A stretch of DNA of 64,000 nucleotides, from assembly GCA_044892525.1 (NCBI GenBank), contig CM097886.1:122264001-122328000 (forward strand). Direction: 5' to 3'. The DNA is from Schmidtea polychroa. Its lineage: Eukaryota. A program made the position numbers and the translations under genes. Below the pieces are notes generated by a model, which was given only the letters and a program-made list of their open reading frames with translations, made no database searches and was not told where the DNA came from. This document shows, one piece after another, positions 27,101-62,654 of the stretch. Each line of letters opens with the position of its first letter. Within the stretch, counting starts at the first letter, position 1.

Positions 27101-28198
27101 GAATATGGATTATTTGAAGTTTTCCACAAATTATAATCGGAATAATACTATCTGGTCAATAAACAATACTTCATTTGTTAAATGATTCTAAATTTAGTGT
27201 CTAGCCGTGCCGTTATTTGGATAAGATTAGATCCGCCGGGTTACTGGCTTTACTGATTTACACGATTTACTGATTGGACTTGTGCCGGTATCTCTCACTA
27301 TTTTTCACCCGCTGCGATTAATTTTTGGAATATGCAAAAAAAATTATCTGATAGTTGCCGTGAAAGTTCTCAGGTGTCGATTGGACCCGCGTGCATTTGT
27401 TTAGAAATAGCGAGTAGACATTTGACTTAACATAATCAGTAGATAGATTGGTCCTTATGGCGTTCCCCTATTCGGCTAAAACGTCAATACGCGTGCTTCC
27501 ATATACAACTATATTCGGATCATCTGAGGCCTATCGTTCACGTTACCTGAAAATTTTACCCAACATTCGTGGTACACTCAAAAGTTAAAAGTACAAATCC
27601 GTTGTCACAAATCACGTTGAGATGGTCTGGGTGGTTACACACGTGCAGAAAATTGATTTTTCGTTGGCGATCATCATCCAGGGGTACCCCCTATCCTTAG
27701 AATCTGTCTGAAAAATTTGGTAGTAATTCCTATGACGGATTCATCATGGTTCGAAGTGATGTGACTTGGTTCATTATTTTCCTTCCATCCAACTAACTCA
27801 TAAAAATCTGGTTTTCAGTGGGAGCAAAAATGCTGCATCTTCACATAGAATCTCTAATTCGACGGTAAGACCTTGTGAATAGGGTTCGCGATTGTCCGGA
27901 TCATAGGTTTAGAGTTAGGTAAATTGATGCTAGAAGTAATTCTCGGAAGATCTGTGGTGACGGAAAGTGCCGCTTCTAGAAATCCTATCCTCAGAAAAAT
28001 GAACAAAGTGAGAGTTAGTCATTTTCATTTTTTGTTTTAATTCTCTGTTTAATTTATTATTATCTATTTATGGTGTTTCTTAATTTGTTTTTATAATTTT
28101 TAATTTATTTTTCTAATTTATTTATAATCTTTGTATTGTTTCCTAGTGTTTTTCCTCTGATTTTCTTAGGTTATCTCGTTTTTTATTTCAGCCCAACA
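24138..28198 (-). mobile_element. Solo LTR (4061 bp) of a giant gypsy subfamily
   Basis: Termini TGTTGGG...CCCAACA; 4-bp TSD GAAT at 24134-37 and 28199-202. The minus-strand start TGTTGGGCTGA is identical to the LTR start at 40895/63557. Contains a homolog of the 43390 ORF. Confidence 0.85.
24390..25060 (-). pseudogene. LTR-borne orphan coiled-coil gene, disrupted copy
   Basis: Aligns with 43390-44130 (FSPAQMKE..SRALRALIKEQSEALHKVY; KRR*PSRAER; FFDLDEIF). Nonsense codon at 24587 plus a frameshift; begins at a TTTTAG acceptor. Confidence 0.75.
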
Positions 28199-39856: not shown

Positions 39857-41228
39857 ATGTCATAAACAAGGATATTGTACATCTTTAATTAATTGTACAT
39901 CTTATTAAACAAGATTTTATTCTCAAAAATAATTTTATATCAATCAGCCATTTGGATTTAATACATTTATGTGGAAGATGTTTGTTCAAATTTTTTATAG
40001 CTGGGTTGTAATCAAATATTCAATTTTTAGTTCTTCAATTTATTACACAAATCATCCATTGTTCTTTTTTGTTTCATCGTTTATTTTTCAAACTCTTTTA
40101 TTTTACAAAACTATTTTCACATTCACGTTAGTCGGTTAAATGTAATGTCTCGTTTATGATTTACAATTTTTCTGCTTTTAAATATTGTTCCCACACACAA
40201 TTTATCATTTCCATCTAAATAATGCTCAATTAATTCAGTATATAATTCAATTATCCAAACTTCGTATATTTTTGGATTATAGGAAATTTATTATTTCAGT
40301 TAATAAAGAAAGGAGATTTTACCCTGTAATTCTCGGGTAGTTCGAGAGCTGTTCATGATCTATGCTATGTTAGAAAAATAGTATGATGATGGTAAACTTG
40401 ATTAAACAAGATATTAGGGTAATCCTGTAGTTACACATTTCTTGAAGGAATATTTAAATACGATATTCCTAAAACTTTCAAACACCACCTTTTCCATTAT
40501 ATATTATAGTTAACCACTTGTACTGCGTAACTTTATATTATTAAGATTAAATGTACGTTAATGAAATTATTAGTATATATTTCTAATTTCAGTATTAACC
40601 AAATGAAATAGTTTTAAAGATTAAAATTTATAAACATAAAAAATGAAAAGTTTTAATATAAAAATTTTAAATGCCGATTTATATCATCAGTTTCCTGGAA
40701 CCGTGTCTACTTATGATTGATTTTGGATTTACTATTTTGAAAAAATTTAAATTGATAAGATTGTTAAATATTATTATTGATAAAAGATTCACAGCTATTA
40801 ATCAAAAATTAAGGTAATGACTAAATTTAAATTGCTGAATTTATAAAAATTCGTATTACAAATAACAAAACTAATTAAAATTAAAACAAAGAAATGTTGG
40901 GCTGAGTCGAAGGGTATCGGAGAGATTAGGTTAAGCATAACGAAACTAAAATTAAAAATAAAAATAAAATAAACAAATCTACGAAACAAAGTAGAAAGGA
41001 AATAAGAAAAATAATAATTAGAAAATAAGAATTAAAACAAAAAAATATAAAAACACGAAAAATTGAAATAGGACAATAAAATGACGGAAAATGACGTAAA
41101 ATGCAGTAAATAATAAGGAAATTAAAGAAAATAAATAAAAAATACAATAAAAATAAGGAAAATAGGAGGAAATAGCTCAAAAACAAGGAAAACAAATTAA
41201 AGTAATAAAAATAAGCGGTACTCCATTC

Positions 41229-41318
41229 TGATTGGTCCGCATAAATAGAAAACTAATATATAAGCAGACACTAAAATCATAACAATTACCGTTCATCTAA
41301 CCACTACATTAGGTAAGT
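41229..41318 (+). promoter_or_regulatory. LTR promoter (inverted CCAAT, TATA) and splice donor
   Basis: GATTGG at about 41230, TATATAAG at 41257, AG|GTAAGT donor at 41313. Same elements in the 3' LTR (donor at 63975). Confidence 0.55.
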
Positions 41319-43389
41319 GTATTTTAATTAACAATGACCGTTCATCTAACCACTACATTAGAAACCAAAATTCACAGCGACAGCCACAGATTCACCGAAA
41401 TCATTTCAAGGACTATTCTAGGAATCCAGGAAAACTCAACCTATTCTAGTATTAACCATTTCTGTTCAGAACTTTTCGATTCAGCCTATTTGAAAATTTG
41501 GTAAGGGATTTTTTCATTATTTAGGTTTACCATGCAACGATCATGTATATTTATGAATTTATAGTAGTCTAAATTTAACAATAATTTTTCTCTTTTCGTT
41601 TGATTTGAAGGTTTTACTTAATTAAATGTTTTAGTAATTTGGTAATAAACGTTTTATTAGGAATTAAAGGATTTTTTATTATTTGTTGATTTTATGATAT
41701 TTAAAAATTTTGGAGAAACGTGGTGTTGAGATACTCCATGTCATGGTGTGAGGTGCCTTCGGGAGCTCAGCCGGTGGACATGGGGTCTTTTCAATCACGC
41801 AGCTGATTCGGGCCGTAATGTGGGGGCTTCCTCACGGGTCCGTCGCTGAAGGAGTGACTAAATTCTATGAAAAACTCATACGAGGAAGTAGGGTAGGAGA
41901 ATGAATCGATAAATAGGAGAAATTTTGATATGTTCGCGCAGTGATTGAGGGTGTCACACTAGCGTATTATAACAGCGTCTGATCAAGTTAAAAATCTTCT
42001 TTATCATCCAGTAGATCTAGGCAGGTCTTTCGTTAACAAAACCGTCCAACCTTGGTAGTGCTATAGTTGCCATAGTTCTCGAATTCGCTAGAAATTTAAT
42101 CTTGAAGTTTTCAGCTACCGATTTTTGCGAGATCGCTATTCCTATCGGCTATATGTCCTCTCAAGGATGAAATTGTATGAAATCGCGTAATTAAATAGGT
42201 TTAAGTAATCATTAAAAATAAAAGCGAATAACTCCAATCAGTAAAAATGTATTTCTCTAAAAAATAATTCATTAGAATAATGTTTACCCAGTAAAGCATA
42301 AAATGTCCACATCCCGTCGAGTGGAAAATCCAGCATTGGAATAAGTAATAAATCTCCAATTTGACAGCAGTAGCCGGCATACATTGATAGCGATGGAGGG
42401 CCACGAGACGAGCTGGTAAATCATATTTGAGGGATCGTGAATTAATTCCAATATTGATGATGTAGAAATCCGGTTTTTCCAAAATATCCATGAGAGATAG
42501 CAGGCAGCATTTGAGGTAGATACATGGTTCGTCAGTGATGTAATATGTCATAAGGGAAAATACATCTGCATGCATACACAGGCATAGCATAGAGCATGAA
42601 GACATCAGTCAGCGATTATGACTAAGTAGAAGTAGGTGAGAGAAAATTTTCATGCGCCATGCGCTTTAGAATAATCACAGAGGCTACTCGCAATATGTAG
42701 ATTATACAGACTGTTAATCACAGGAAATCCAACCTGACGCGTCAGCTGAAACATAATTCACTGAAACATACTACTGACAGTCACCCGATTTTCTCACCGA
42801 TCAGAAATGATAGATAGCGGCCAGACAGACATTTTGGGTACACGTGGTTAAATTCATTTAAATATTCAACTTTGTCTTAATCATTATTATTTTCTCACAA
42901 CTAAACAAGTGCAAATTAATTTAACAAACTTTTACTCATCACAACAAATAATTGTAGAGCAATTGATAGAGTCTTATTTAGGTTGAATAATTAATTTAAA
43001 GATAAATCGCCTATCCATGCATAAGATCTACACATCCAAATTATTTGTCTTGGGGTAAATCTATAATTTAATTTAAACTCTCTTTAAATGCGAGGTACTG
43101 TTTTCAGGTAAATGGATTTAATTGTAATTTCATCAACCTGTAATTTCCCTTATCCAGGATAATACCTTACTTTCCTTCGGTAAAATCTTGCATGAATGAT
43201 CCACTCTCGTATGAATAATGACCCCAAGCGTACAAGATCTGTAGGGTAACGAAATCTCTTCAGGCTAATAAACTCGTTTTGTCTGTATGATAATCTATGA
43301 TCGGTATGGTATGAGTGTGACTAGATGATGATGTCTCACATTTGCCTTAGTTTGATTTTATTCGCATTTCCTCTTCATAGCTATTCAAG

Positions 43390-44130
43390 ATGTCTTCAAG
43401 TACCAACAACATTCTTAAACCTTGCTTTTCTTGCTCGGACAAGAATTCAATTATCAGGGATCTACAAGCGCAAATTGGAAAATACAAAAGGAAGATCGAT
43501 GAGTTGGAGGGGACATGGTTTAGTCCCACGCAAATGAAAGAGACCCAAAAGAAATTGTATCGAAGCGAGCACTGTCGTGATGCTCTCATTTCCGAAAGTC
43601 GGGCACAGAGGAGCCTGATAAAAGAGCAGTCGGAAGCACTGCATAAACTATACATACAAGCGGCGACCACTAGAAAAATAGCGAAGATCCCAATTAACGA
43701 AGCCAGCAATCTCTTCCCAGCGCACCATGATACTTCCGTCAAGTTTTCGTCTCCACTCGCGAAGTCTTGCCATGGGTGTGTAGAGTCCGAGCTCTCTCCT
43801 AAAGACCCAGAGATTGTATTCACCGGAACCAGTAAGGTCCAGCCAAATCTCGCGTCCTCATCAACCATACAAACGATCACCTCCTCAAAGCCTAAGCGTC
43901 GACAGCTGTCTCGAGCTGAACGCAAACGGAAACAACGGGAACGGGCATCTGTCAAGCAGTGTACATCGTCAATCATCGCTCCAGTCAGCAATATTGATCT
44001 GACGGTGGTCGTCCCAACAACCGGGATCTCCGGGCGAGTCATCTCCGCCGCCGGGGCGACGTGGGAGGAAAACGCCGCCGAGTTCTTTAATCTGGACGAG
44101 TTACTCGCCGACTCGGAGTGGGAGAAATGA
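43390..44130 (+). CDS. LTR-encoded orphan protein, 246 aa (CxxC, coiled coil, basic NLS-like segment, acidic FFxLDE tail)
   Basis: Intact ORF. Diverged homologs at 24390-25060 and 3007-3308 indicate protein-level conservation. Acceptor upstream; AATAAA plus GT-rich tract downstream. Confidence 0.75.
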   Translation: MSSSTNNILKPCFSCSDKNSIIRDLQAQIGKYKRKIDELEGTWFSPTQMKETQKKLYRSEHCRDALISESRAQRSLIKEQSEALHKLYIQAATTRKIAKIPINEASNLFPAHHDTSVKFSSPLAKSCHGCVESELSPKDPEIVFTGTSKVQPNLASSSTIQTITSSKPKRRQLSRAERKRKQRERASVKQCTSSIIAPVSNIDLTVVVPTTGISGRVISAAGATWEENAAEFFNLDELLADSEWEK

Positions 44131-44265
44131 GGATTTCCCCGGAAAATGGCCTCCTTCTCCGTAGAGGATTGAACTTCTTCTGTTGTCGTTTTCTACCTTG
44201 GTGTTATTCAGTTCGTGTAAAATTCCTTGTATAAATTCTCTAGGTGTTTATATAGTAAATTTAAT

Positions 44266-44310
44266 AATAAAAATTTTTCGTTTATGTATGTGTTATCTTG
44301 TGTGTTGAAC
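44266..44310 (+). terminator. Putative LTR polyadenylation signal
   Basis: AATAAA at 44266 followed by a T/GT-rich tract. Confidence 0.45.
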
Positions 44311-44921
44311 TTAGAGAATAATATGAACTTGCAAATGGCACTGAGAGTTGCAGAGAATAAGGAGTATTGGTCAATTGGTAATTCCAGCTAGAAATCTTGC
44401 GATGGGCGACAAAAGGAAATGACGTAAGTCCTTCTATCGGCAGTCAGGGTTAGGAAGTCGAGGCCTCAGTAGGGAGTAGTCCGAAGGAGATGGCTCACCT
44501 GCCTACTGGCGTCTCGCCGGCATAGCACAGTTCCAACGTGAAGCGATTCACGGGTGCTATGTTGGAGGGTAGATTATGTACGGGTCCTGCTCGGCAATGA
44601 CCAGAATCAAGACGAGCGTAATCGATATGGGGCATTCATCCTCTGGACTGAAAGCGGTAATGAAGGGGGTCATCCGGGTAGTCACCCGCCAACAGAAACA
44701 GTATTTTAAAAATATCATGGATATTAATGAATAAGGGAGTAAATAAAAATATAGATTATTACTCAATTGTATTAAACTGAATTTAAATTTAACACGTTCA
44801 CCCCGGCGCGGATCACCGGTGGCCCGCACTAACCTGTCCCATCGGGCGGCGTGTACCACCGGTGGGACGTATTTGATTGTGTTGTTAGACGGTACGTAAC
44901 ATTAAATATTTAGATCTTTAA

Positions 44922-45864
44922 CACTGACTGCCGAAACAGAAGATAGTGCGCAATTTTTTATGAATATACCAAGCATTCGCGAGGGAAGTTACGAATATTA
45001 ATTGTATTACTACTTTTTGATACCATTTTTCGAGTCCATTTCAAAAATTTTACACTGCTACGATTTTCGAAACTCATAATTTCACTACGTTTTTGTTTTT
45101 GTTTTGCCTGCGGTGGAAGGAATTTTTTGTTTATTTTTTTACAGTACCACAAATAAATGTATTTTTCTCTAAAAGTTCTTCACCCAAAGTGACACTTGTA
45201 TAATAATTATTAGTAAATAATATGCGGCCCTCAAATAATAAGCCATTTAGTAATCTCATTACTACATCGTGGGAATATGATTTTTCAATGATCGTTACAT
45301 TTTTTCCGGTATAAATTTCGATATTATAAGTGTAACCTTCAGGCAAACATAATTTGTATAACTTTATGTCATACTTATGTCGCTTGCCTTGGATGTATTG
45401 ACGAAAACCTTGACGTCCTCTCCATTGAACCATACTTTTATCGATAACGATATTTTTGCCAGGTTTAATAGCACTTTTGAAAGTATCCACAATTGCTTCA
45501 ACAATTGTTGTGATATAGTTTGGGTCTATGTTGATAGTGTGGTAATATTAATTAAATTGTTATTATTATTGTTTTATTATAGTTGTGGTAAGTTTGCTGG
45601 AGAGTTTAATAGAGCCCAACCGAGTTTCCTTTAAAAAGAACTGTCTCAGGATAGCTGGGATGTTTGTTTGTAGGTTATTTTATACAAGTAACAACTAAAA
45701 TAAATACGAAATGGGTAAATTACAACAAAAAATAATATTAAACTTTCAAAACGTTTATTTAACAATAAATCAAAGACCTTTATGAAATTCACGGGAGTCC
45801 GTGGATCAGAAGGAATTGTTATTGTTGCTTTGTACTTGGATATTCGGCATGAATTTCGACGTTT
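44922..45864 (-). mobile_element. Truncated piggyBac (PGBD4-like) element
   Basis: TTAA|CACTGACTGCC end at 44922. ORF 45131-45490 reads IVIDKSMVQWRGR..RQYIQGKRHKYDIK..FTNNYYTS. The other end is lost at the LTR junction. Confidence 0.85.
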
Positions 45865-46108
45865 TCGAGGCCTCAGTAGGGAGTAGTCCGAAGGAGATGG
45901 CTCACCTGCCTACTGGCGTCTCGCCGGCATAGCACAGTTCCAACGTGAAGCGATTCATGGGTGCTATGTTGGAGGGTAGATTATGTACGGGTCCTGCTCG
46001 GCAATGACCAGAATCAAGACGATCGTAATCGATATGGGGCATTCATCCTCTGGACTGAAAGCGGTAATGAAGGGGGTCATCCGGGTAGTCACCCGCCAAC
46101 ATAATTTT

Positions 46109-46126
46109 TGGGGGCTCAGCCGGGAT
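46109..46126 (+). promoter_or_regulatory. Primer-binding site, tRNA-Pro
   Basis: TGGGGGCTCAGCCGGGAT, 16/18 identical to the canonical Pro PBS TGGGGGCTCGTCCGGGAT, 7 nt after the LTR end CCAACA. Confidence 0.88.
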
Positions 46127-46353
46127 ATACATCAATTTCAATTAATTAGCGAATGCAAATTGACTAATACTTCTCGAATCTTATTATAAAGTACGGTTAG
46201 AAAATGACGAAGTAAAGATATAAATAAAGCAAATTTAAATTTGGGAAAATAAAATAAAAGTAAAACAACTTATAACAATTCAAAAGGGAAATGTTTGCTG
46301 AAACCACCATGTATTAGCTGTATATTATTAAAATATTTTCTTTTCCAATAGAC

Positions 46354-46839
46354 ATGACAGAATCCACAGAACTGATGAAACAACTAAGCAACTTCGTTGA
46401 TATAGAAAGCGATCCCATAAAAACGCTTACCCAGAAAAGAGAGAGAATTAAGAGCATACAACTACAAACAATGGGACAAGCACCAATCGTACCTAACCAT
46501 ATGTTATTAGCCATAGGCCTAAGTCGTGCAGATAGTAAAGTGAACCATGAAACCATATATCAGTGGTATCAGGAAAGATTGAGACACCCCGCATTGAATC
46601 TAGAATACCATCGACTACGAGATCAATTAGATATTATATCCGACATAATCGAACAGAAGATACAAGAAAAGCTCACTAAATTACGAACCTGTCTGTCCTG
46701 CAAACTTCGTCCTATTCGCGTACTGTTCTTGCCCTGTGGACACCTCAGTCACTGCGAAGAATGTGTAAACGATCTAAAACGGTGCACAATATGTAAGCAC
46801 GAGATAAAAGAGACTCATATGGTTTATTATGGCGAATAA
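46354..46839 (+). CDS. IAP/Mdm2-type C-terminal RING protein, 161 aa, no BIR
   Basis: CLSCKLRPIRVLFLPCGHLSHCEECVNDLKRCTICKHEIKETHMVY at the extreme C-terminus, preceded by a short coiled coil. Confidence 0.85.
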   Translation: MTESTELMKQLSNFVDIESDPIKTLTQKRERIKSIQLQTMGQAPIVPNHMLLAIGLSRADSKVNHETIYQWYQERLRHPALNLEYHRLRDQLDIISDIIEQKIQEKLTKLRTCLSCKLRPIRVLFLPCGHLSHCEECVNDLKRCTICKHEIKETHMVYYGE

Positions 46840-47400
46840 AAGTGTTAAAGATTTAATGACATTTATGAACATCGAATTGGTACTGACGATTGAATGAGAA
46901 TAAATGTAATTGTTGTGTGAAATATTATTAAAGTCTTAATTTTATTTTTATTTTTTTTATGGCAAATAAATTCTTGTTATAAGCTGAGTAATCCATGGCT
47001 TTTAATTCTATTTTATTTTTTTTTGAATCAAACGAAAAGAGAACTAAACTAACGTGGAACTAGTCCCAATATAGGCTGTAAGGGTACAAACCGAGCCACC
47101 TTCGGGCGGTACGTTCTATCATGAGAAAAACCCATTGGGAGGGGATAACCAATCAACCTAAGTGAGGAGCGTAGGGCGGGGTACCATCGCAAATGATGAG
47201 AAGTTTCTGCGGTGTGACTGATCACCATGCCAATGCAGAAGTGGATCATCGCAATCGTCGTGCGTTTTGAGCAAGGGGGGAAAGGGAAAACACTCTCAAA
47301 CGGTAAAGATTAAGCCGACACATTAAAAACAGAGGCAGAGAAAATGACAATTTAGGGTAAAAGAGGAAAGAGAAGTAAGAGCATGCAGAGTGAGAGATAT

Positions 47401-47787
47401 TAAGACCGAGCTGTCGAAAAGTCCAGCCGGTCAGGGAAATTAAAACTGAGCTGTGAAAAGTCCAGCCAGTCGGAGATATTAAGGCCGAGCTGTTGAAAAG
47501 TCCAGCCGGTCAGGGAAATTGAAACTGAGCTGTGAAAAGTCCAGCCAGTCGGAGATATTAAGGCCGAGCTGTTGAAAAGTCCAGCCGGTCAGGGAAATTG
47601 AAACTGAGCTGTGAAAAGTCCAGCCAGTCGGAGATATTAAGACCGAGTTGTGGAAAAGTCCAGCCGGTCAGGATAATGAAGATTGAGCTGTTGAATAGTG
47701 CCAGCCAGTCGTAAGATCGAGCTGTCGAAAAGTCCAGCCGGTCAGGATAATGAAGATTGAGCTGTCGAATAGTGCCAGCCAGTCGTA
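47401..47787. repeat. About 10 tandem 39/40-bp units forming alternating 79-bp dimers in the element leader
   Basis: GAG(C/T)TG..AAAAGTCCAGCC units at 47408, 47448, 47487, 47527, 47566, 47606, 47645 and onward. Confidence 0.93.
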
Positions 47788-49096
47788 AAGGCCTAGAAAC
47801 ATAATGAGATAGCATTTAAGCTAATAGTGATGAAAGAGTATTAAAGCTAGCTAGAAAACGAATTGAAGTTGGTTACGAGAATTTGAATTTAGAGAGGATT
47901 AAACGAGCTCGTGGGAGGTAATAATGAAATCTTTTCAGTAAGAAAGAGAAACTGAAAAGGAAAATGAATTAAAGAGATAATGAAAATACAGAATAAATGA
48001 GAATAAATGATGAGTAAAAGAGGAAGGTGATTAATTAATTAAATGGGATCCCAGATAAGTAGACAAGGTTCTACAGAATTTTTTGGTTTAAACCGGTTAA
48101 ACGAATTTTGTGTTGATACAGAATAGAACCCAATAAGGGGAAATGGAGATGAAAGATTAAGTAAAATAGCGGAACCGCGTAAAAGGATTAAGAAAATATG
48201 GGAGGTAATAAGCAGCAACTGACAACGACCTATCGATATTATAAATGATAACTATAGATAATTGATACGACCATATTGATAATTGTTACTACCCCAAATA
48301 GATAATTTAAAATCGACGAAAACTATGGGTTGATGGGTAATTATACTCCACGAAGAATTGTATGGGGAAATGAAAAGGAGCATAACAGAGGCCCTAAAAC
48401 GGTGTCTGTGCTTGAATGTGGCAAAAAGGAATGATTGATTCGTGTAAGCAAATGCAACACGATATCATTTTTTCATTGTAGATATCAATCCAACCAAGTC
48501 AATTCAGAACCAGCTCAAAAGGAATCCAGAGAATATACAGACAATCCAGTAAAAGCGATTCAGAACCCGCACAAAGGAAAATAAACCCATCCGAACACGG
48601 AGGACGACAACGACATCTTTATCTACGACGGAATTATCGAAATACTTAGCATCGACGTATTAGCAGAAGTCAATCAAGGACTCAGATATCCCCTCCGGAA
48701 ATCAGCCGAGAAATTACGCGGAATATTCCTCGAAGGAAACACTATCAGCACCGAACTCGACCAATTCAGCAGCCTCTAACCGTAGAAAAATCTACGTGAA
48801 AAGACAGAAAGGAGTAAGAAAGAATCACGGATAAACCCAACCTTAGATCTTCAAGTAAGCCAGGAGACGTATTATTTTCAGGAGACGAATTACAACAACT
48901 CAAAAGAGGACGATCCATTAAACAACAAAGAGGAATATCACAAGGGGCACGAAGAACCGATCAAATACCCATATTTGACCAAGAAAATCTCGGGTACACC
49001 CCTAGTCGATCTCGAAGCAGAGAAAGTCTATCCGACATCACTAATAGTTTAGCAACGTCAACCGAAGAACTAGCAGCCCAAAGTCTAGTCACATCA

Positions 49097-52000
49097 TTGG
49101 ATAATTTAAAAGAAACAGACGAAGTTAGAACACCAATCATGACGAATGTCGTAAAGACCGACGAGTATAAAGAGAAGTTCAGAGGAGAGCCTTTCAACGG
49201 GAATGCGAACAAGTTGGCAACGTTCATAACCAATTTTGAAGTCTATATCGATGTATGTGGATGGACGTCCGAAGCAATTAGTAAACGGATGCCGTTGTTT
49301 TTATGCGATAGCGCATTAGAAGTGTACTTAGAAGCTAAAGAAAGAAATACGAAGTTAGACAATTGGGAAAGCATCAAAACATTCTTGAGGAAAACTTTCG
49401 GAGCCAGCAAACCAATAAATCAAGCGCTGAGCGAACTGGCAAGTAGAAAACAAAGAGCAAATGAATCCATAACGTTATATGCGAGTGAATTGCGAAGATT
49501 GGCAAAGAAGGCCATGAACGGAAACTTGCCGGAGGAAAATTTAATTGGTTACTTCATAGAAGGACTGCGCCGAGAAGAGGTAAGGGCCTCGGTGGGATGT
49601 CAAATGTGTAAAACACTAGAGGAAGCCATAGATTGGGCCACGAGATGCGAACTACACCTCCCGGCACAAATGAATGTCATGCAGGAGGAGGGGAGAATCG
49701 CAGCCGCAACGATAAAAACGGAAAATGGAGATAACAACAATCACGAACCAAAGATGAATCAATTTATACCGGGTGCGCATCAAATTTTCAAACCACCGCA
49801 AGGACGATCAAACGGGAATAACAGTGAACGCAACAACTCGAACAATGGGAATAATTTTAATAATCGACGAAATACGAACGATAACAAACAATGCCGAACA
49901 TGCGGTAAACCAGGACATTGGGATAGAGATTGTTACCGAAGCGCAAATTGCAATAGGTGTGGACGACGAGGACACACGGAAAATATATGTCAATTGAGAG
50001 GATGTTTTAACTGTGGTCAACCGGGTCACATCTCAAGAGACTGTCGAACAAGGAGCCAACCACAACGACCACCACAGCGAAATAATAATTATGCACCAAA
50101 TCCGCAACGACAAAGTAATCCTAGTGAGGGAAAGCAAATGAATGTGATGCAAGAGATTTCACAAATGAAGCAGATGATGCAACAAATGATGAGACCGAGA
50201 CAAGAACAAGTACCACAACAAACTCAGAATATACGTATGATGAGGAGCACCGAAAATCTCAACAATTATGAAGTGCAACAACATGCACAAGAATGGCAGA
50301 GACTACAAGCTGAAGAAGAGAGGATAAAAAGAGAGCGAATTCAGCAGCGACAAGAACAACCATTACGAATAAATATGATGAGAATGGTAAAGGAGATAAA
50401 AGAGCAATATTGTTACAATTACGGTAAAAATCCAAGAGTTGTACCTATGAGCGAACCAGAGAAACCGACAGAAACGATTACAGCAGCTAAAAAAGAAAAT
50501 CCAGCAACACCGCTAAAAGGAAATCAGAGAATTCAGAAAATATTTTGGAAAAAGATAAAAGATAAAATCGAAAGAGAAAATGAGAAAACAAAAACAGAAG
50601 CAGAAGCGATAAATGATGGAAACGAGAAACAAACTAGTCATTTAACCCATGAAATGGTACAAGAATTAGAATCAGAAGAATTAACGATATTTGAGAATAA
50701 AAAGCTCAAGAAAGTTCCAAGAATGAGAAATTTACGAATTAACATGATGAGGACGACAAAGAAGGTGTTGTCAACAGATGACGATGAGGATTATGTGAGT
50801 AGCCTTGGTGGAGAAATGTTACAGTTAAATGAAAATATCGACCAACTAAGGGAAAAGATCGGAGCAGATGAGGATGAAAGTGAAAGCGACGTAACAAGCG
50901 AAAGCGAAGACGAGAATATCGAAATGAAATTGAGAAAAGAAAGAGAAGAAGCGATAAAACAAGTAAAGGAAATACTTCCAGTGGTGGTCAGAAACCAGGA
51001 ATTCATTGACAGTATACCATACAGACGCTTCATACAAAAGATAATGAAACTAGAAAGAAACGAAAAAGACCTAATACCAAACGAGGAAAAAGCGATAATA
51101 AAGAAGTATATGGAAAAAATGAAGCAAGCAGAAACAACACGCTATGTAATAAAAATCGGAACGAGTAAAGGACTCGAGAGAATATGGATAAAAAACGCCG
51201 TTACAGACGAACTTTTCGACTGGATAAGAGAACATTTGGGCAGCTCGAGAAAGAAAGAATACCTGTATCAATATCAAGGAGAACAAATCAAACCCGACAT
51301 GCACCTAATAGATGCATTGATCTGGCCAGGAGAAACTCAAATATTGAAGTTGCATAAAGAGAAGCAACCAACAAATGTTCACGAATGGGCTAAAGACGCC
51401 AAGGCGGAATACGATTTTAATATTAAGCTGAAGTTGGAACAAATAAAACAATGCACCTTGCGACGAAATCTAGATAAATTAATCAAACAAATCCAAGAAC
51501 AAGTCGAAGACAACTGGGATTTGCTCATAGCAAGACGAACTCCAGACATGCATGAACTAATGAGCCGACTGCGCGATACAGAATTGCTCCGAATGAGTGA
51601 TTGGAGAACCATAAATTTGATCCACAAATACGGAAGATTAAAAGAAACGCAACCACAGAAGTTGGAAATAACCATATGGTTACCAAACGAGGAGAAACGA
51701 CGAATAAAAATGAGCAACCAGAGTACGGTGGACGATTTAGTATCTAAGATAAACCAAGAGATAACGGAAAGAGTCCGAAGCGAGAGCAGCGATGGTATGA
51801 TAGATGAAGGGCAAACAGACAAAATAATAGACGAATGGAATGAGTGGCTGAGAAACAACGATAGCTCATTACCAAGAACAGATAACGAGAGAAATCCGAG
51901 TTACGAAAGGACAAGAGAAGCTGGAACAATGATGGAGAAACGGGCAAAAGGGAGGCCCAAGAAGCAAGGAGAAAAACCAGAATTTAAAACCAGAGAACAG

Positions 52001-52702
52001 TTGAAACAGGAACAAGGACAAGTCAGATTAGAGAAATTGGATAAAATAGTATGGGACCTAAAAGAAGCACAACCAACAATCGAGAGAGGCGAAAAATGGA
52101 TACGAGAGCTAGTAAAGGATATGTTAATAATAACGAATCCACAATTGAGACGATTATGGCAACGAAAAGTGGCAAGCGTAGACGCCAGACAACTATGGAA
52201 TGTAATATCCGGAATAATTCCGAAATTAATTAAAGAGAAGACAAAAACCACTAAAACCGATTGGGAAGAGACAAGAAGAGTAATTGAGCAATTAACTCTA
52301 AACGCAAACGACGACGAACATCATTTAGTAGTATTAACGTATCTAATGTACAATTTGATGGGATTAGCAGCAAGAAAAATACCTAACAAACAATTCGCAA
52401 ATCATGTAGAAATGACCGTTACAATCATAGAAAATACAATCGAACCACATATTATCCGCGCCGGTGGGTGGAAAAGGCTCATACAAGCACCACGAAAAAA
52501 CGAGCAAGAGAGATCAATGCAAATCAGGTTGAAGAAATTGCTAAACGAGTTAGAATGGGAATTGCCATTGAAAGACCCAGTCAGCAGAAAAGCGTCAATT
52601 AATTCACTAATGATGACCATGATGATATGGATGTTATGCACCAGCGGAGCAGCTGGATTCACAATCTACGACTGTGACAATTCGATAATGGGAGAAAAAT
52701 AG
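49097..52702 (+). CDS. gag: Extended Gag polyprotein: capsid, 3 CCHC knuckles, Ubl, CARD-like, Ubl, Bcl-2-like, internal signal peptide and glycoprotein N-terminus
   Basis: FNG..F..NFE..W..L..RKQ..ESI..Y..EL..YFIEGL capsid; CRTCGKPGHWDRDC, CNRCGRRGHTENIC, CFNCGQPGHISRDC. Frame is open from 48818; first ATG at 49139. Confidence 0.9.
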   Translation: MDNLKETDEVRTPIMTNVVKTDEYKEKFRGEPFNGNANKLATFITNFEVYIDVCGWTSEAISKRMPLFLCDSALEVYLEAKERNTKLDNWESIKTFLRKTFGASKPINQALSELASRKQRANESITLYASELRRLAKKAMNGNLPEENLIGYFIEGLRREEVRASVGCQMCKTLEEAIDWATRCELHLPAQMNVMQEEGRIAAATIKTENGDNNNHEPKMNQFIPGAHQIFKPPQGRSNGNNSERNNSNNGNNFNNRRNTNDNKQCRTCGKPGHWDRDCYRSANCNRCGRRGHTENICQLRGCFNCGQPGHISRDCRTRSQPQRPPQRNNNYAPNPQRQSNPSEGKQMNVMQEISQMKQMMQQMMRPRQEQVPQQTQNIRMMRSTENLNNYEVQQHAQEWQRLQAEEERIKRERIQQRQEQPLRINMMRMVKEIKEQYCYNYGKNPRVVPMSEPEKPTETITAAKKENPATPLKGNQRIQKIFWKKIKDKIERENEKTKTEAEAINDGNEKQTSHLTHEMVQELESEELTIFENKKLKKVPRMRNLRINMMRTTKKVLSTDDDEDYVSSLGGEMLQLNENIDQLREKIGADEDESESDVTSESEDENIEMKLRKEREEAIKQVKEILPVVVRNQEFIDSIPYRRFIQKIMKLERNEKDLIPNEEKAIIKKYMEKMKQAETTRYVIKIGTSKGLERIWIKNAVTDELFDWIREHLGSSRKKEYLYQYQGEQIKPDMHLIDALIWPGETQILKLHKEKQPTNVHEWAKDAKAEYDFNIKLKLEQIKQCTLRRNLDKLIKQIQEQVEDNWDLLIARRTPDMHELMSRLRDTELLRMSDWRTINLIHKYGRLKETQPQKLEITIWLPNEEKRRIKMSNQSTVDDLVSKINQEITERVRSESSDGMIDEGQTDKIIDEWNEWLRNNDSSLPRTDNERNPSYERTREAGTMMEKRAKGRPKKQGEKPEFKTREQLKQEQGQVRLEKLDKIVWDLKEAQPTIERGEKWIRELVKDMLIITNPQLRRLWQRKVASVDARQLWNVISGIIPKLIKEKTKTTKTDWEETRRVIEQLTLNANDDEHHLVVLTYLMYNLMGLAARKIPNKQFANHVEMTVTIIENTIEPHIIRAGGWKRLIQAPRKNEQERSMQIRLKKLLNELEWELPLKDPVSRKASINSLMMTMMIWMLCTSGAAGFTIYDCDNSIMGEK

Positions 52703-52713
52703 TATCAAAGAAG

Positions 52714-55700
52714 GTGTTGGCGTATTACTGTGGACAATACTCATATTCAACCCTCATATTACCTGGATTAGATAAAGAAATAGTACCTATACAACGGGAA
52801 GACTGTAAAGAGCTTTTTAGAACCGGAGCGATGAGAATCCGGGATGGAGTAACAATACACGGACAAAGCGGAATGATCAAGACGGAAAGTATCTACATAG
52901 CCAAACGGGTAAAATCAACCGATGGATCATGCAACGGAGGTACATATACGATCCGAGGAGAGGTAATATCCGGGGTAGTAGTAATCGAGTCCTACACAGT
53001 GGAGTTGAAGGAATACGAAGCGCAATTCGACGCAAATAATTATCAAATGAAAACCAACCCAGCATGCAGAGCTACGGAAAACGTATGTAGAACGGGAATT
53101 TCGACTATAATATATGAAGCCAACACCCAAAAATGCCGTCTCCAATTGTTAAAAAGTGCTTTGTTCAATGAAGTAAAAGGAGAAATTTATGAAAACGAAG
53201 ATGATGATGAAGAGAATGGAAACGTAAGGATGCGAAATGGGAAACCAGTTCCACCATCCCCCAAAGAAAAGAGACTCACAACACAAAAAACAAATACCTG
53301 GATAGCCAACGGAAGTTATATACCCCCAGATATCGTTGGACAACAAGCAGCTCTAACCATGACACAAAATATGTATCCACAGTTACCAAGTCAACCAGGA
53401 GTGAACTATATGCCAACCCGAAGAACGAAAAGCGTAGACCAAGCTGATGACGTCAGAACAATAGCAGTAATGAGTTCACCAGGAGGCGCGGCAGTAACAG
53501 TCATGATCCAAATCAACGGGAAAGAGACAAGCGCAATGATAGATACCGGAGCAAATGTATCAGCAATAGCAATAAACCAAATACCCAGTAAATATTGGAA
53601 AGATATCGAACAAACAACTATCCATATTATTGCATGCAGTAAAGAAACCGTAGACGTAGTAGGAAGATGGTGGACTACGTTACGATATCAAGATAATGAA
53701 ATTGAAACGTATCTAGCGGTGATACCCAAACTGAGCGAACCATGTATAATCGGAACGGATTTAATGCCGGAATTGTTCAAGGAAGTAGTAATCGATTTAA
53801 CAACAATGTGTCTAAAAGACAAAATGGGTAGAATATGCAAGATGAACGCAATAATTAGATGCCCGGAGAAAATAAATGTACCAGCAAAATCACAGATGAT
53901 ATGTCAAATAAAAGTGGATACAGGAATGGAAGGAGAAGCCATTTTTGAGCCAAGCAAATCATTCGAAAAACGACGAGAATTACCATTAGCAAGAGAAATA
54001 ATAACAATAAATGAAGAGGGGGAAATACCAATTAACATCACAAATTTCGAAGAGGAAGATAAGATCATATATGAAAATGAAAGATTGGGTAGATTGACAC
54101 CCATGATAGACATCGAATTGCCAAAAATCACCAATGAATCAACGAAAGCTGAAGAATTATGGATAATTGATAGCACCTTGCTAACGGAAAAGGAGAAGGA
54201 AAGACTCCAACAACTATTGATAGAATATAAAGATATATTCGCAATTTCGGATTTGGATTTGGGAGCATGTGAGGTCACACTACACGCAATACCATTAATA
54301 GACGAAACTCCAATTGCGTTACGACCATACAAACTAGCAGAGAAGCAAAAAGAGATAGCCGAAGCCGAAGTACAAAAAATGCTAGATGCACAAGTGATCG
54401 AACCAAGTTGTTCGCCATGGCAATTTCCAGTAGTCATGGTGAAGAAAAAAGATGGTACTCAGAGATTCTGTATCGATTATCGGAAACTAAATGCAGTAAC
54501 AAAAAGAGACACATACCCGTTACCAGACATCAATGAGATGTTACTTATGCTGCAGGGGGCCGCATATTTTACGTCTCTAGATCTAAAGAGCGGATATTGG
54601 CAGATCAAAGTCAAGGAGGAAGACAAAGAGAAAACAGCATTCACATTGGGCCGAGATCTATACCAATTCAGGAAAATGCCGTTTGGACTAACCAACGCCC
54701 CAGCATCATTTCAGAGATGTATGAATTTTGTCACACACGGGATCAAGCAGTGTATGGTATATATTGATGATTTATTAATATATTCAGCAACATTCGAACA
54801 ACATTTGGAAGACATTAGAAACGTGTTCATCCGATTACGACAATGGAAATTGAAACTCAAACCATCCAAATGTGATTGGGCAAAAGAAGAGGTTACGTTC
54901 TTAGGACACATAGTGTCAGCAAAAGGCAAAGAACCAGATCCAAGAAACATAGAAAAAATAAAAACATGCCCAGCACCAAAAACCGTCACTCAAGTGCAAG
55001 AATTTCTCGGATTATGCGGATATTATCGTAAATTCATTAAGAATTACGCAGGCATTGCGAAACCAATCCAGGAATTAGTGAAAAAAGATATCTCATTTAT
55101 TTGGGGTGCAGAACAGCAAAAAGCATTCGAAACACTACGAGACAAATTGATTGAAGCTCCAATACTAGTACATCCTGATTTCAAAAAACCGTTCCTGTTA
55201 GCAACAGATGCCAGTGGATATGCAGCCGGAGCAATATTAGGACAACTCGATGAGGAAGGAAAAGAAAGAGTGATCGGATATTACAGTAGAACGTTTAAGA
55301 AGCATGAGAAAAACTATTCCGTAACTGAAAGAGAAGCGTTAGCAATAATACAAGCGATTAAACATTTTCGATATTTGTTATGGGGACACGAAATATGTAT
55401 CACAACGGATCATCAACCATTGGTATGGCTCGGACAGCACAAAGAAGCTTCAAGTAGGTTGATGCGATGGGCAATGCAGTTACAAGAATATTCACCGTTC
55501 ATAAAATTCAAAGCGGGAAGAGCAAATGCCAATGCAGATTGTATGTCCAGATTTATTTTTCCAGACTTAGTAGATCACGAAATGCAACGAATATGTCTGA
55601 TGGTAGCAGAAGATTTGGATTTTTGTCAATTACGGAAAGACCAACAAGAGGATGTAGAGTTGAAACAAATAATCGAGTATGTGAAAACCGGGAAAGCAGA

Positions 55701-57138
55701 GGTATATGAGAAGGATCAAAAATTGAAAGAACATATGGATAAACATCGGCATCGATATATTATTGAGAAGGATTGGTTATTGATAATGGATGGGGAAAAG
55801 AGACTGATGTGCATCCCCGAGAATAGATGTAAAGATCTACTAACACAATATCATGATGGAAGACTCGGAGGACATATGTCATCTAAAACAATTGCTGGAA
55901 TACTAATTGCATGGAGGAACCCGATCAAAAACGATTATATGGTAGATATAAACGAAACATTTACCAAAGGAGAAAACACCTTGATGAGAGAAGCGATGAG
56001 AGGACATCACCTATTCGAAATTCCAAATCAACTACTACAACGTGGCATAAAGTTTTCAAATCACAAAGACGAACAACTAATCAGAAAACGAATTACCAAC
56101 TTCGAAAAAGCTATATCTCAATTTACCGATAAAGTACAAGTAAAATTTTGGGAAACCGTGAGTGTATTATATATGATGGAAACTATGAATAACATTCGAG
56201 AAAACTACCTAAGTATTATTCAAGTTCTAACGGCAGAGGAACGCGTTAACAGTTCGAACAAGAAAAAGATAAAAATCAAGAAAATAACAGCAAGAGAGTC
56301 TGAGAAACGAGTCGATCAAATAATAAACGATGTAGCAACAACAAGTAAACCAAAGACAATAAACTCCGACCAAGAGATAGTAGTACGTAAGGCTAAGGAA
56401 GTATTCTTTGAAGAAATGCAAGATCTATCTGATGAAGCGATACTAGCAAAAATAATAAAAACAGTACACACCTACGCAAGAGACCAGACCACAAATTTAG
56501 ACATAGGAAAAATAAAAACATTTATACCACTAGCATTCACCTTACCAACAAAAGATTCAAGAACACCATTACAACAAGCCATTCTAGCAGCAAAGGAAAA
56601 CAGAGCAATAACCATCGTAAGAATTCTTAGAGACTTCGGAGAAGAATCGAATGCAAAAAATGAACAAGGAGAAACAGCAATGATGTATGCAGCAATAACA
56701 AATATACACCCGAAAACCTTACATATACTACACCAATCAGGTTCGAGACTTGACGAAATATCAAACGAAGGAAATTCTACCATGGATTGGGCAACAATAC
56801 AACCAAACTTGGAAATGATTAGATTCATTTGTAAAAATGCTACAAGAACTGAGGTAGAAAATATCTGTAAAAATACGTCACAATTCCAGTGGGATACGAT
56901 ACGGAAAAATTTGGAAGCCATGAAGTTATTGTTAACCTGGAAAATACCACAAAGCAATAAATATGCAATAAACATAAATGAGTTCTACGAAAACGGAGAA
57001 AATGCTATGGTTAAAAATACGCTGACAAAAGGAGGAACTCCGAAAATCATAATGATCATATTGAACAGAGAAGACCTCAAATTCACGCAAAATCAAACGA
57101 ACAAAAGCGAATCGGAAAACATCGTCGAATACAATTAA
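52714..57138 (+). CDS. pol: Glycoprotein fragment + Pol (PR, RT, RNase H, truncated IN) + ankyrin repeats
   Basis: IDTGA at 53539; YIDD at 54758; ATDASG..ERE..TDH RNase H; YHDGRLGGH then loss of the IN core; GETAMMYAA and GNSTMDWA ankyrin-like repeats. Confidence 0.93.
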   Translation: MLAYYCGQYSYSTLILPGLDKEIVPIQREDCKELFRTGAMRIRDGVTIHGQSGMIKTESIYIAKRVKSTDGSCNGGTYTIRGEVISGVVVIESYTVELKEYEAQFDANNYQMKTNPACRATENVCRTGISTIIYEANTQKCRLQLLKSALFNEVKGEIYENEDDDEENGNVRMRNGKPVPPSPKEKRLTTQKTNTWIANGSYIPPDIVGQQAALTMTQNMYPQLPSQPGVNYMPTRRTKSVDQADDVRTIAVMSSPGGAAVTVMIQINGKETSAMIDTGANVSAIAINQIPSKYWKDIEQTTIHIIACSKETVDVVGRWWTTLRYQDNEIETYLAVIPKLSEPCIIGTDLMPELFKEVVIDLTTMCLKDKMGRICKMNAIIRCPEKINVPAKSQMICQIKVDTGMEGEAIFEPSKSFEKRRELPLAREIITINEEGEIPINITNFEEEDKIIYENERLGRLTPMIDIELPKITNESTKAEELWIIDSTLLTEKEKERLQQLLIEYKDIFAISDLDLGACEVTLHAIPLIDETPIALRPYKLAEKQKEIAEAEVQKMLDAQVIEPSCSPWQFPVVMVKKKDGTQRFCIDYRKLNAVTKRDTYPLPDINEMLLMLQGAAYFTSLDLKSGYWQIKVKEEDKEKTAFTLGRDLYQFRKMPFGLTNAPASFQRCMNFVTHGIKQCMVYIDDLLIYSATFEQHLEDIRNVFIRLRQWKLKLKPSKCDWAKEEVTFLGHIVSAKGKEPDPRNIEKIKTCPAPKTVTQVQEFLGLCGYYRKFIKNYAGIAKPIQELVKKDISFIWGAEQQKAFETLRDKLIEAPILVHPDFKKPFLLATDASGYAAGAILGQLDEEGKERVIGYYSRTFKKHEKNYSVTEREALAIIQAIKHFRYLLWGHEICITTDHQPLVWLGQHKEASSRLMRWAMQLQEYSPFIKFKAGRANANADCMSRFIFPDLVDHEMQRICLMVAEDLDFCQLRKDQQEDVELKQIIEYVKTGKAEVYEKDQKLKEHMDKHRHRYIIEKDWLLIMDGEKRLMCIPENRCKDLLTQYHDGRLGGHMSSKTIAGILIAWRNPIKNDYMVDINETFTKGENTLMREAMRGHHLFEIPNQLLQRGIKFSNHKDEQLIRKRITNFEKAISQFTDKVQVKFWETVSVLYMMETMNNIRENYLSIIQVLTAEERVNSSNKKKIKIKKITARESEKRVDQIINDVATTSKPKTINSDQEIVVRKAKEVFFEEMQDLSDEAILAKIIKTVHTYARDQTTNLDIGKIKTFIPLAFTLPTKDSRTPLQQAILAAKENRAITIVRILRDFGEESNAKNEQGETAMMYAAITNIHPKTLHILHQSGSRLDEISNEGNSTMDWATIQPNLEMIRFICKNATRTEVENICKNTSQFQWDTIRKNLEAMKLLLTWKIPQSNKYAININEFYENGENAMVKNTLTKGGTPKIIMIILNREDLKFTQNQTNKSESENIVEYN

Positions 57139-57143
57139 GGGAA

Positions 57144-58508
57144 TTGGTAAAAGAATGGAATAGAAAGAGACATGCAGCAACAGGAAGAAAAGAATTTGAA
57201 TTCGAAGCAAAATTAGCAAGAAATAGAGTGCTAACAGCATATCGCAGATTGTTGAACGATATAAATGTCGAGGACGACATTTTAAACGACAGCGGGGGAG
57301 ATAAAGACGATAAAGACGACAATAATGATGAAACAGGTCAAAACGGGAATGGAGAGAAAGAGGAATCAGAGGAGAATAATCAAGGGAATAACGACTCAAG
57401 TATAAAAAAGGAGGAAAATAAGCCGGGAAACCGAACAAAGGAAGAGGAGAAGACGAATAATGGGAAACAGAGGGTATGCCTACTTTTTACCAACAAGGAA
57501 ATGGAGACAAATATGATGGTAATGATACTCATACTAACAATGGTAGAAATGATAACAGCCCACGGTGGAATGAGAACGATATAGGAAGCCAAAGAAACGG
57601 AAAATAAAGACAACAATGAGGAGGAACTAAAACAAGAAAAGAAAAAGCAAGTACAAGAACAACAATGGGATCTGAAGGAGGAATGGAATCTAAAAGAAAG
57701 GTGCATACTAGGAAGATGTGTGTCGAGAGCATATCAGAGACTAGTGTTAATAAATGAAGATACAGAACCGATAACGGAAGTAAGAATACAAGAAGCGTAC
57801 CGAAATCGAGACGGGAAGAGAATAACGAAAGTCAAAGGGAAGGAGGTACACCTGGGAAAAGGAGGTGAGGTAGTGATAACGCAACTCCAGCCAAGAAAAG
57901 AACACAAAGTCTGCATTTCAAGATTAAGACCGGGTGAAGACTGTCTACAATATGTAACACAGCAACAACCTCCAAAAGAATACACAGTATGCATCTGGAG
58001 AAAAGATACAGCGAGAGAATGTCGACGATACCCTGGGAAAAGAGGGAAGAAAAGAAAAGGCAACGATGAGAAAGAGGAGGAAGAAAAGCGCAAGAAAACT
58101 AGTGAGAAATATCAAGATAATTACGTGTCAGAAGAAGAAATGGAAAAAATACAAAAAATGGCAAAGGAAGGGATCAATGAGGAAATAACGAAAATACGGG
58201 GATTGGAGAAAGGAAAAAGCCAAACAGAGAAAGATGCAGAAACAGCAAGTACAATAACAGGCAATGGAAACTCAGAGACCATCAGTGTAAAGCAGATGAT
58301 ATGGATCAGCGGAATAATAATAATCGGAGCGTTCATAACTATAACGGGGGGGACGATAAAAATAATCCGAGATAAACAACAGCGTAACAAACTCGAAATG
58401 ATCAGAGCTAGAAATTTTCAGCATCGAGTAAAACGACCAAATAATATCAAGCAGGAACAGTGGGTGGAGGCCTGGAATGCTCAGCGCCCTCCAAACTCAC
58501 GTATATAG
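57144..58508 (+). pseudogene. Polyprotein tail: acidic linker, signal peptide, FN3-like ectodomain, TM, short tail (in-frame TAG at 57582)
   Basis: ORFs 57144-57584 and 57720-58508 share one frame with only one stop between them. Signal MMVMILILTMVEMITAHG; ITQLQPRKEHKVCI and QPPKEYTVCI motifs; TM at 58296-58367. Confidence 0.6.
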
Positions 58509-58677
58509 AAAGGATTATGACTGTATATAGATTGTAAAAAGTAAGTATATAATATTTATTTATATAACAGTATTCTATATCTCTATATAAGCGCGGTATC
58601 ACTATTATATAATGATGGGGACAATTAATATAAAAATAAAATTTAGATAAGAGTTGAAAAGTGTATATAAATTAGGA

Positions 58678-59037
58678 ATGGAGCAAGGAAATAACGAAAT
58701 GAACCACAACACAGTAACTGAAGAATTATGGAAGCAACAATGTGCCGTATTAGCACAATTAGTGTCTAATTTACAAGAACAAGGATTGACGATGCAAAAG
58801 AACCTAATCGAGAGTATGAACAGAGGATTTAGTTATTTGAAAATAATTGAAGACCAGAGGTTAAAAATCGAACAAATGCACAGGGAAATAGAGAGGATAA
58901 CCCAATATAGCCGGAGATAGGAAATCGAATTGGAAAGAATGGTGGAGGAAGCAGAACAGACAGAAATAGAAGATTGGTCAGAATGGCTAATGAGTAGAGA
59001 GGAGGGCGGACACGAAGCCGACTCTTCCGAACCATAG
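58678..59037 (+). CDS. Small coiled-coil accessory ORF with one internal TAG (58918)
   Basis: ATG at 58678 after an acceptor. Coding-like Glu-rich frame continues past the TAG to 59037. Confidence 0.45.
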
Positions 59038-59122
59038 ACCAAACCTAAATTAAAATGTAAATAACTGTAAATAAAATCTCGAGCCTGTATCGATAAGAAC
59101 TATATGTATATATAATTATAGA

Positions 59123-62615: not shown

Positions 62616-62654
62616 AAGCAATTAAAGCCAGTGTAAATAATATAATAATAATAG

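Follow-up and report, generated by a model that had tools for sequence, protein, structure and literature searches.

An open reading frame under purifying selection inside the long terminal repeat of a Burro-type giant Gypsy element of Schmidtea polychroa, apparently maintained during replication and carried passively by solo copies

Long terminal repeats (LTRs) are usually treated as non-coding, and the generation of solo LTRs as the host's disarming of an element. Complex retroviruses encode regulators such as foamy virus Tas, Tat and Rev of human immunodeficiency virus (HIV), Tax, Rex and HBZ of human T-lymphotropic virus (HTLV) and Rec of human endogenous retrovirus K (HERV-K), none of which, to our knowledge, is encoded whole within the repeated region (R) of the LTR. 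A protein gene located in an LTR is described for sag of mouse mammary tumour virus (MMTV)-like elements: according to the available part of PMC4667437, 490 of 527 contigs were solo LTRs, and purifying selection on sag stemmed from the replicating phase, with none detected after integration. Giant Gypsy-like LTR elements, Burro and GYPSM1, have been described from planarians (PMC6431247), and the available part of PMC8532177 reports that planarian elements of this kind are expressed on PIWI loss. Here we analyse a solo LTR (LTR A) of such an element in Schmidtea polychroa, which contains a 246-aa orphan open reading frame (ORF), within a 64,000-nt window of contig CM097886.1 (assembly GCA_044892525.1, positions 122,264,001–122,328,000, forward strand; coordinates below are those of the window). 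With a probability of roughly 0.55, we read LTR A as carrying a gene that is expressed as a short spliced mRNA and encodes a dimeric regulator of the element, solo copies being passive carriers.

A search of the LTR A protein against its own genome produced 7130 candidates, of which 150 were scored (74–100% identity); the homologous frame of a second solo LTR in the window (LTR B) produced 4919, again with 150 scored (50–100% identity). From these lists 119 family-A and 61 family-B loci were hand-picked and fetched after dropping unplaced-contig duplicates and thinning; both sets are score-ranked and thus favour intact copies, and some of the solos are segmental duplicates. With the window copies included, family A (n = 120) comprised 51 solos (46 intact), 20 5′-LTRs, 22 3′-LTRs, one copy with both junctions and 26 unclassified loci, among which there was no poly(A)-tailed truncated copy. 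The 5′-LTRs carry a primer-binding site (PBS) and family-A pairs 15–29 kb apart have matching target duplications, so the LTR A sequence also occurs in full elements. Family B (n = 62) comprised six solos (one intact), one 3′-LTR and 55 unclassified copies, with 25 intact frames overall. Copies L242 and L257 encode more distant homologs of the ORF (33–35% identity to families A and B), which points to at least a third family.

The family-A start motif occurs 834 times in the genome (control 0). An ORF-blind sample of 20 starts, taken from the first 100 listed among the 834 with already-fetched loci and obvious pairs avoided, yielded eight full frames, one frame with a replaced tail, six broken frames and five starts with no match within 5 kb; only three of the 20 could be classed as solo by our script. 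The first-pass annotation of this locus, made from the letters alone, had called for a genome-wide count of solos with an intact ORF, and this could be supplied in part: 46 of 51 solos in family A and one of six in family B from the score-ranked sets, alongside 8 of 20 in the ORF-blind set, which is a sample of LTRs. Intact frames genome-wide, those in paired LTRs included, number roughly on the order of a few hundred.

Substitution patterns indicate that the 246-aa ORF is almost certainly a real gene under purifying selection. The set comprised 134 intact copies, and pairwise comparison of six family-A subfamilies gave ratios of non-synonymous to synonymous substitution rates (dN/dS) of 0.09–0.19 at dS of 0.3–1.7, well clear of the value near 1 that had been named in advance as fatal to a protein-coding LTR. 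By block, dN/dS was 0.04 (residues 1–110), 0.05 (166–190) and 0.06 (226–246), and 0.28 and 0.43 in the linkers. Between families A and B, at ~40% identity and saturated dS, 25 columns are invariant, all of them in these three blocks.

The ORF appears to be selected in the replicating element and not after insertion, a conclusion seen in LTR pairs and extended to solos. Eighteen clean same-insertion LTR pairs were retained of 25 listed (seven were omitted for truncation or different origin), and these showed 14 changes in 13,338 coding bases (0.00105) versus 59 in 52,537 non-coding bases (0.00112). The coding changes were five synonymous, eight non-synonymous and one stop; nine non-synonymous or stop changes compare with 11.2 expected under neutrality and 1.3 at dN/dS of 0.12 (p about 1e-5). 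Counts are small, and in these 18 pairs there was no sign of the continuing selection expected of a domesticated host gene. Among solos, dN/dS rose from 0.19 to 0.22, 0.27 and 0.76 for copies lying >5, 2–5, 1–2 and <1% from the nearest copy (8, 18, 12 and 4 comparisons, respectively). Very probably solos carry the gene passively and decay neutrally. The original proposal that each solo LTR leaves behind an expressible copy did not hold, given the neutral change after insertion, the 8 of 20 full frames in the ORF-blind sample and the loss of function in LTR B described below.

LTR A starts with TGTTGGG, finishes with CAACA and is flanked by a 4-bp target duplication (GAAA at 40891–40894 and 44695–44698). 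It has neither a PBS nor a polypurine-tract junction, as expected of a solo LTR, and the same applies to LTR B (GAAT/GAAT). The order of elements claimed at first pass was recovered inside LTR A: the TATA box (41257) is followed by two donors (41313 and 41501), an acceptor whose last base is 43380, the ORF and AATAAA (44266). A donor and an acceptor had been correctly noted, although the introns number two rather than one. All 10 family-A representatives compared keep the promoter boxes, TATA without any variation, and family B has these boxes too; the first donor is likewise conserved in both families. Donor 2 is present in 99 of the 100 family-A copies with the anchor motif. A YAG lies within 14 nt of the ATG in 117/118 family-A and 24/25 family-B copies, while the bases around it turn over; the acceptor is placed exactly 9 nt before the ATG in 112/118 family-A copies, and 102 of 109 intact family-A copies keep AATAAA. 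Promoter boxes, two donors, acceptor and ORF are thus conserved where synonymous sites approach saturation. Neither leader exon contains an ATG. Removal of both introns and cleavage near 44290 would give an mRNA of ~1.07 kb whose first ATG is the ORF start, and such a fully spliced mRNA would put the ORF where complex retroviruses hold their regulatory genes.

The start of transcription can be placed from a footprint in the DNA. Intron 1 closes with 25 nt (41337–41361) that repeat exon 1 without a difference, and a G stands before them at 41336. In 93 of 102 LTR copies this repeat matches exon 1 at all of 22 nt (mean 0.996; the values for exon 1 between copies are 0.74 and 0.62). Mismatches between exon 1 and its copy were found in 0/111 rows at +1 and in 29–66/111 at −1 to −8, and a G precedes the exon-1 copy in 19/111 rows and exon 1 itself in 0/111, all 111 rows sharing ancestry and therefore not being independent. 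We take this G to be a copied cap; no paper on the point was found in the literature searched. From the homogenisation boundary at TATA+31 we infer a start at 41288, which together with the footprint places the ORF downstream of the unique 3′ region (U3): unlike a gene of the sag type, located inside U3, it begins 2.1 kb beyond the putative start.

The exon-1 footprint also implies that packaged RNA keeps intron 2 and passes the LTR poly(A) site; genomic RNA would accordingly lack intron 1, retain intron 2 and read through. Strong-stop DNA reaching the cap would land on the second unit of the 3′ repeat, and first-strand transfer would rewrite the exon-1 copy in each cycle. On this map we predict a minus strong-stop DNA of ~3.4 kb, with the poly(A) site of the 5′-LTR having to be bypassed. 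A search for copies lacking intron 2, restricted to family-A motifs, returned no match to the loss pattern. Contigs assembled from sequencing runs that we guessed to be RNA covered the LTR, their depth tracking conservation and unable to rank its parts, and no joint across intron 2 was present among the contig joints listed. One contig joining 41287 to 41337 was rejected as evidence of splicing, the same form being found in genomic copies. A single exon-1 unit without intron 1 was observed in copies L072, L095, L119, L134, L153/L154, L175–L178 and L233, in some pairs in both LTRs.

The predicted monomer contains helices at residues 15–40, 46–99, 175–193 and 225–240 with disorder between them (pLDDT, a model confidence score, 61.5). 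For two copies of residues 8–115 a parallel dimer was predicted, with the chains in register between Cys12 and residue 94, in agreement with the coiled coil claimed earlier. The dimer score was 0.55 compared with 0.00 for the best of three controls, and runs agreed in at least 96% of contacts at pLDDT of at least 80. The mark applied was reached by 21/30 solved pairs and 0/23 single chains (17/29 and 0/30 for eukaryotes) in a procedure that did not use an alignment; the pass may stem from resemblance to coiled coils of known structure. Residues 166–192 include 12 Lys/Arg (the basic block averages 6.7 Arg and 4.2 Lys), and the last 22 residues include eight Asp/Glu and seven F/W/Y/L, with a net tail charge of −7.2 in 109 family-A and −5.3 in 25 family-B copies.

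A dimerising coil, a basic helix and an acidic aromatic tail together make up the layout of trans-activators, and because of this match we rank a trans-activator first among the possible functions, an assignment by analogy that is tentative and falls somewhat short of even odds. Residues 12–94 would form the parallel coiled-coil dimer, the Arg/Lys helix could bring the protein into the nucleus and bind nucleic acid, and the acidic aromatic tail may recruit co-activators. In composition and constraint, the acidic and basic regions would suit a protein of the Tas/Tat type.

Several points weigh against the gene being a spliced, dimeric regulator with passive solo copies. No copy lacking intron 2 turned up, so its splicing is predicted from conserved signals, as is a spliced, polyadenylated and translated mRNA, which we consider likely. 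An R of ~3 kb with cleavage near 44290 is likewise likely, its 3′ end being set by the poly(A) signal, and AATAAA is found behind the ORF in only 7/25 family-B copies, at scattered positions. No relative was found outside the own genome, and no homolog with a function in any search, so that function is argued from composition and analogy. Pfam gave nothing above cut-off (sub-threshold matches were the coiled-coil scaffolds Rootletin, 0.014, and Lebercilin, 0.008). Word searches with single sequence and profile, confined to near lengths, were blank, as were searches of 1.84 billion representative sequences and of PDB sequences; the best score in ESM Atlas, 0.83, is a lead only, and Foldseek against viral structures returned no E below 0.001 (query model pLDDT 61). 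Private substitutions in solos, of which 103 were synonymous and 93 non-synonymous while five created stops, still gave a ratio of 0.32 in a test that mixes pre- and post-insertion change and relies on a noisy intron-based mutation spectrum; unsampled source lineages can explain the value, some later selection being the alternative. A solo is present in just two of the 18 clean pairs, and the 14 changes make a small sample. Finally, a Rev-like function would agree at least as well with the covarying hairpin that the retained intron contains.

In such a case the protein would be a Rev/Rex/Rec-like factor: by binding of its Arg-rich helix to the hairpin in intron 2 it would allow genomic RNA that retains the intron and reads through to exit the nucleus or escape the poly(A) site. 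By analogy this is conceivable but on balance unlikely. Genomic RNA must keep intron 2, and the structured block within it (fold z −3.4) contains a core hairpin common to both families, in which 99.1% of 668 cells are paired (39–66% in slid controls) and 3 of 12 pairs show two-sided change, including a C-G/U-A switch (19 vs 36 sequences). The preponderance of Arg over Lys in the basic block also agrees with it, and the Arg-rich helix and the structured RNA in an intron-retaining transcript are both present, as presence goes. However, the acidic aromatic tail, judged by eye, fits no canonical leucine-rich export signal, and an 80-residue parallel coil would be unlike Rev. The covariation, limited to those three pairs, is largely one between-family event, and a hairpin just behind the major donor could equally be a packaging signal. 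We regard it as a candidate for either a packaging signal or a response element; Rfam returned no match to the intron-2 element. Long-range pairing between the intron-2 block and the conserved block in the unique 5′ region (U5) was considered and not supported (z −2.5 to +1.3 in 14 copies).

Both functions could be joined in a regulatory switch housed in the ~3-kb R, where an early spliced mRNA would yield a dimeric Tat/Rev-like protein acting on the LTR promoter or on the intron-2 hairpin, thereby enabling intron-retaining, read-through genomic RNA, with the few hundred intact LTRs, solos included, supplying the protein in trans. We put this forward as speculation, more doubtful than not by a wide measure.

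The protein might instead have an accessory role towards the host cell or the particle (scaffolding, trafficking, anti-silencing or anti-apoptotic), in the manner of the element's RING, TRAF and ankyrin cargo, and like sag owe its place in the LTR to being the 3′-most of the accessory genes. The presence of RING, ankyrin and TRAF domains in the neighbouring internal region (cf. PMC6431247), the coiled-coil scaffolds among the sub-threshold Pfam matches and the action of MMTV sag on the host (in the available part of PMC4667437) are compatible with such a role. Basic helix and acidic tail are, however, both strongly constrained, a pairing typical of nuclear regulators, and no signal or membrane segment is apparent in the structural model; we judge a host- or particle-directed role to be quite unlikely.

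Less probable still is a different transcript map, in which R is short, its end no more than a few hundred bases from the start, and a very long U5 takes in the ORF. Of R, the footprint determines just the beginning and an extension past 41361, and family B has no conserved AATAAA behind the ORF, which would suit such a map. In family A, however, no AATAAA downstream of the start is conserved other than the one that follows the ORF, and no second conserved signal exists near the leader. A short-R model with a TATA box near 44249 was rejected, that stretch not being conserved. Co-option of the solo LTRs by the host as a selected multicopy gene family, to which the 46 of 51 intact solos, their private-change ratio of 0.32 and the 834 family-A starts might be credited, is very improbable, since score ranking favours intact copies and the ORF-blind sample holds 8/20, the older family B keeps 25/62, change in LTR pairs is neutral and LTR B is dead.

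Table 1. Positions of the features discussed, in window coordinates
Feature	Positions	Strand	Remarks
Solo LTR A, Burro-type giant Gypsy element	40895..44694	+	3800 bp, TG...CA ends
Putative U3	40895..41287	+	A-rich, kept in families A and B; boundary from exon-1 homogenisation
Reverse CCAAT box and TATA box	41231..41264	+	ATTGG at 41231; TATATAAG at 41257
Putative exon 1	41288..41312	+	25 nt; first base is the presumed transcription start (TATA+31 and homogenisation boundary)
Putative intron 1	41313..41361	+	49 nt, GT...AG
Putative exon 2	41362..41500	+	Non-coding, no ATG, ends at donor 2
Predicted intron 2	41501..43380	+	1880 nt, 46 ATGs; no complete copy examined lacks it
Conserved structured RNA element in intron 2	41719..41848	+	Hairpin 41809-41842
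246-aa orphan ORF	43390..44130	+	Begins 9 nt behind acceptor
Protein parts			CxxC; predicted parallel dimer through helices 15-40 and 46-99; helix with Arg/Lys at 166-192; acidic and aromatic tail at 225-246
AATAAA with GU/U-rich stretch downstream	44266..44310	+	Presumed end of short mRNA and of R; family A only
Conserved U5 block	44395..44600	+	Common to families A and B; invariant GACGTAAGTCC at 44421
Host flank, repeated behind 3′ LTR of neighbouring element	44695..45865	+	
Same-insertion partial element	45865..64000	+	LTR stub 45865-46101 (237 bp), PBS, internal region, 3′ LTR from 63557
Solo LTR B, family B	24138..28198	-	Degenerate: no promoter, acceptor or start; ~40% protein identity to A
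Fragment	3007..3952	-	96% duplicate of 24744-25717 of LTR B; abuts hAT transposase fragment

Within the U5 block, the motif GACGTAAGTCC (44421–44431) shows no variation in family A and almost none in family B, and lies ~135 nt past the poly(A) site. It is possibly a U1 site or a site resembling the cyclic-AMP response element (CRE); as a candidate U1 site it might suppress polyadenylation, or it might serve splicing to internal ORFs. In the LTR A copy the U5 block folds no better than shuffled sequences (z 0.04).

LTR A does not stand in isolation. The stretch 63557–68527 duplicates 40895–45865 (LTR A plus 1171 bp of right flank) at 99.9%, and because LTR and flank are repeated in this way behind the 3′ LTR of the neighbouring partial element, the solo and that element derive from one insertion and occupy a single insertion site. 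The repeat may reflect tandem duplication, a template switch between solo and full alleles, or an assembly joining two haplotypes. About 1 nt of sequence is shared at the junction at 45865, and copies L066/L073 present the mirror-image case (the 40895–45865 duplicate is L061). The duplicated flank includes, at 44784–45865, what we take to be a piggyBac-like transposase fragment (frame 45131–45433, minus strand).

The 17.4-kb internal region of the neighbour encodes a RING ORF, Gag with CCHC knuckles, a fusion-protein-like stretch, protease–reverse transcriptase (RT)–RNase H–ankyrin, TRAF and further ORFs. The fusion-protein match is weak (E 4.6e-5, below the curated Pfam cut-off), no Pfam match to an integrase core was found in the element's ORFs, and neither BIR nor BCL2 was matched in those scanned. 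The order Gag–(env-like)–protease–RT–RNase H with ankyrin, TRAF/MATH and RING cargo is that of Burro elements. A single polyprotein of ~4900 aa with integrase after RNase H is not seen; the neighbouring copy is shorter and split (1187 + 1435 aa), and both this and the lack of integrase describe one damaged copy. Tandem repeats of 79/74 nt occupy the 5′ internal leader (47389–47785). A YAG is located a few bases before the ATG of internal accessory ORFs at 46354, 59123, 60689 and 61911, which suggests that the LTR leader gives rise to several spliced subgenomic mRNAs.

For LTR B, the claim of a second solo LTR stood as regards the shared start, the homologous frame (47% identity to the LTR A ORF over 172 aligned residues) and the motifs named, whereas the copy itself proved degenerate. 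Relative to a related copy ~930 bp are gone, comprising the TATA box, both leader exons and the hairpin. The acceptor, the ATG and the first ~19 codons are also gone, with 1165 bp of foreign DNA (25056–26220) in their place, and the ORF remnant (~24400–25055) is interrupted by an in-frame stop near 24587 and shifted in its tail. LTR B is dead. Its AT-rich stretch was considered as an intron and rejected, the foreign DNA being absent from related copies. The fragment beginning at 3007, taken at first for a further homolog, turned out to be a local duplicate of a piece of LTR B, foreign DNA included. Elsewhere the window, with a GC content of ~30%, contains an intact 883-aa hAT transposase ORF (19222–21873, plus strand), three near-identical 2238-bp tandem copies (5201 to ~10000) and a 144-bp satellite array (31310–32473).

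Compared with the regulators of complex retroviruses, the likeness consists of a small protein from a presumably fully spliced mRNA with a basic helix and an acidic tail or coil, and of a structured RNA element in intron-retaining RNA; there is no sequence or fold match between the LTR A protein and these regulators. Were the protein a true regulator, a planarian Gypsy element would have reached the logic of complex retroviruses independently, and fresh solos could act in trans. Whatever its function, recombination deletes gag-pol, and the promoter, the introns, the ORF and the poly(A) signal stay behind until they decay.

Our element is assigned to the Burro type by architecture and not by sequence identity to the named Burro1–4 or GYPSM1. 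It shares with these giant size, Gag CCHC knuckles, fusion-protein homology before the protease, RT–RNase H, ankyrin, TRAF/MATH and RING cargo and multi-kb LTRs; it differs in that section 7 of the description gives no ORF, intron or promoter map within the LTR (PMC6431247). The Ogre elements of plants likewise belong to Gypsy, have multi-kb LTRs and carry additional ORFs whose function is unknown, but those ORFs are internal (PMC6431247). An ORF in a planarian or Gypsy LTR was not described in the literature searched, which excluded Grohme et al. 2018 and supplements, and the available parts of PMC8532177 and PMC11410931 describe no such LTR ORF. The closest parallel, so far as the available part of PMC4667437 goes, is sag, likewise an LTR-borne gene that survives in solo LTRs and is apparently selected only while replicating; sag differs in lying mostly in the U3 of a betaretrovirus and in acting on host T cells. 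The LTR A ORF lies downstream of the putative transcription start, behind two introns and before a poly(A) signal, in a Gypsy host and with no sequence match to sag. An LTR-internal gene persisting in solo LTRs is thus already known from MMTV sag, and what is new here is that the host is a Gypsy element, that the ORF lies downstream of the putative start of transcription, with two introns and a poly(A) signal of its own, and that its protein family has no known member.

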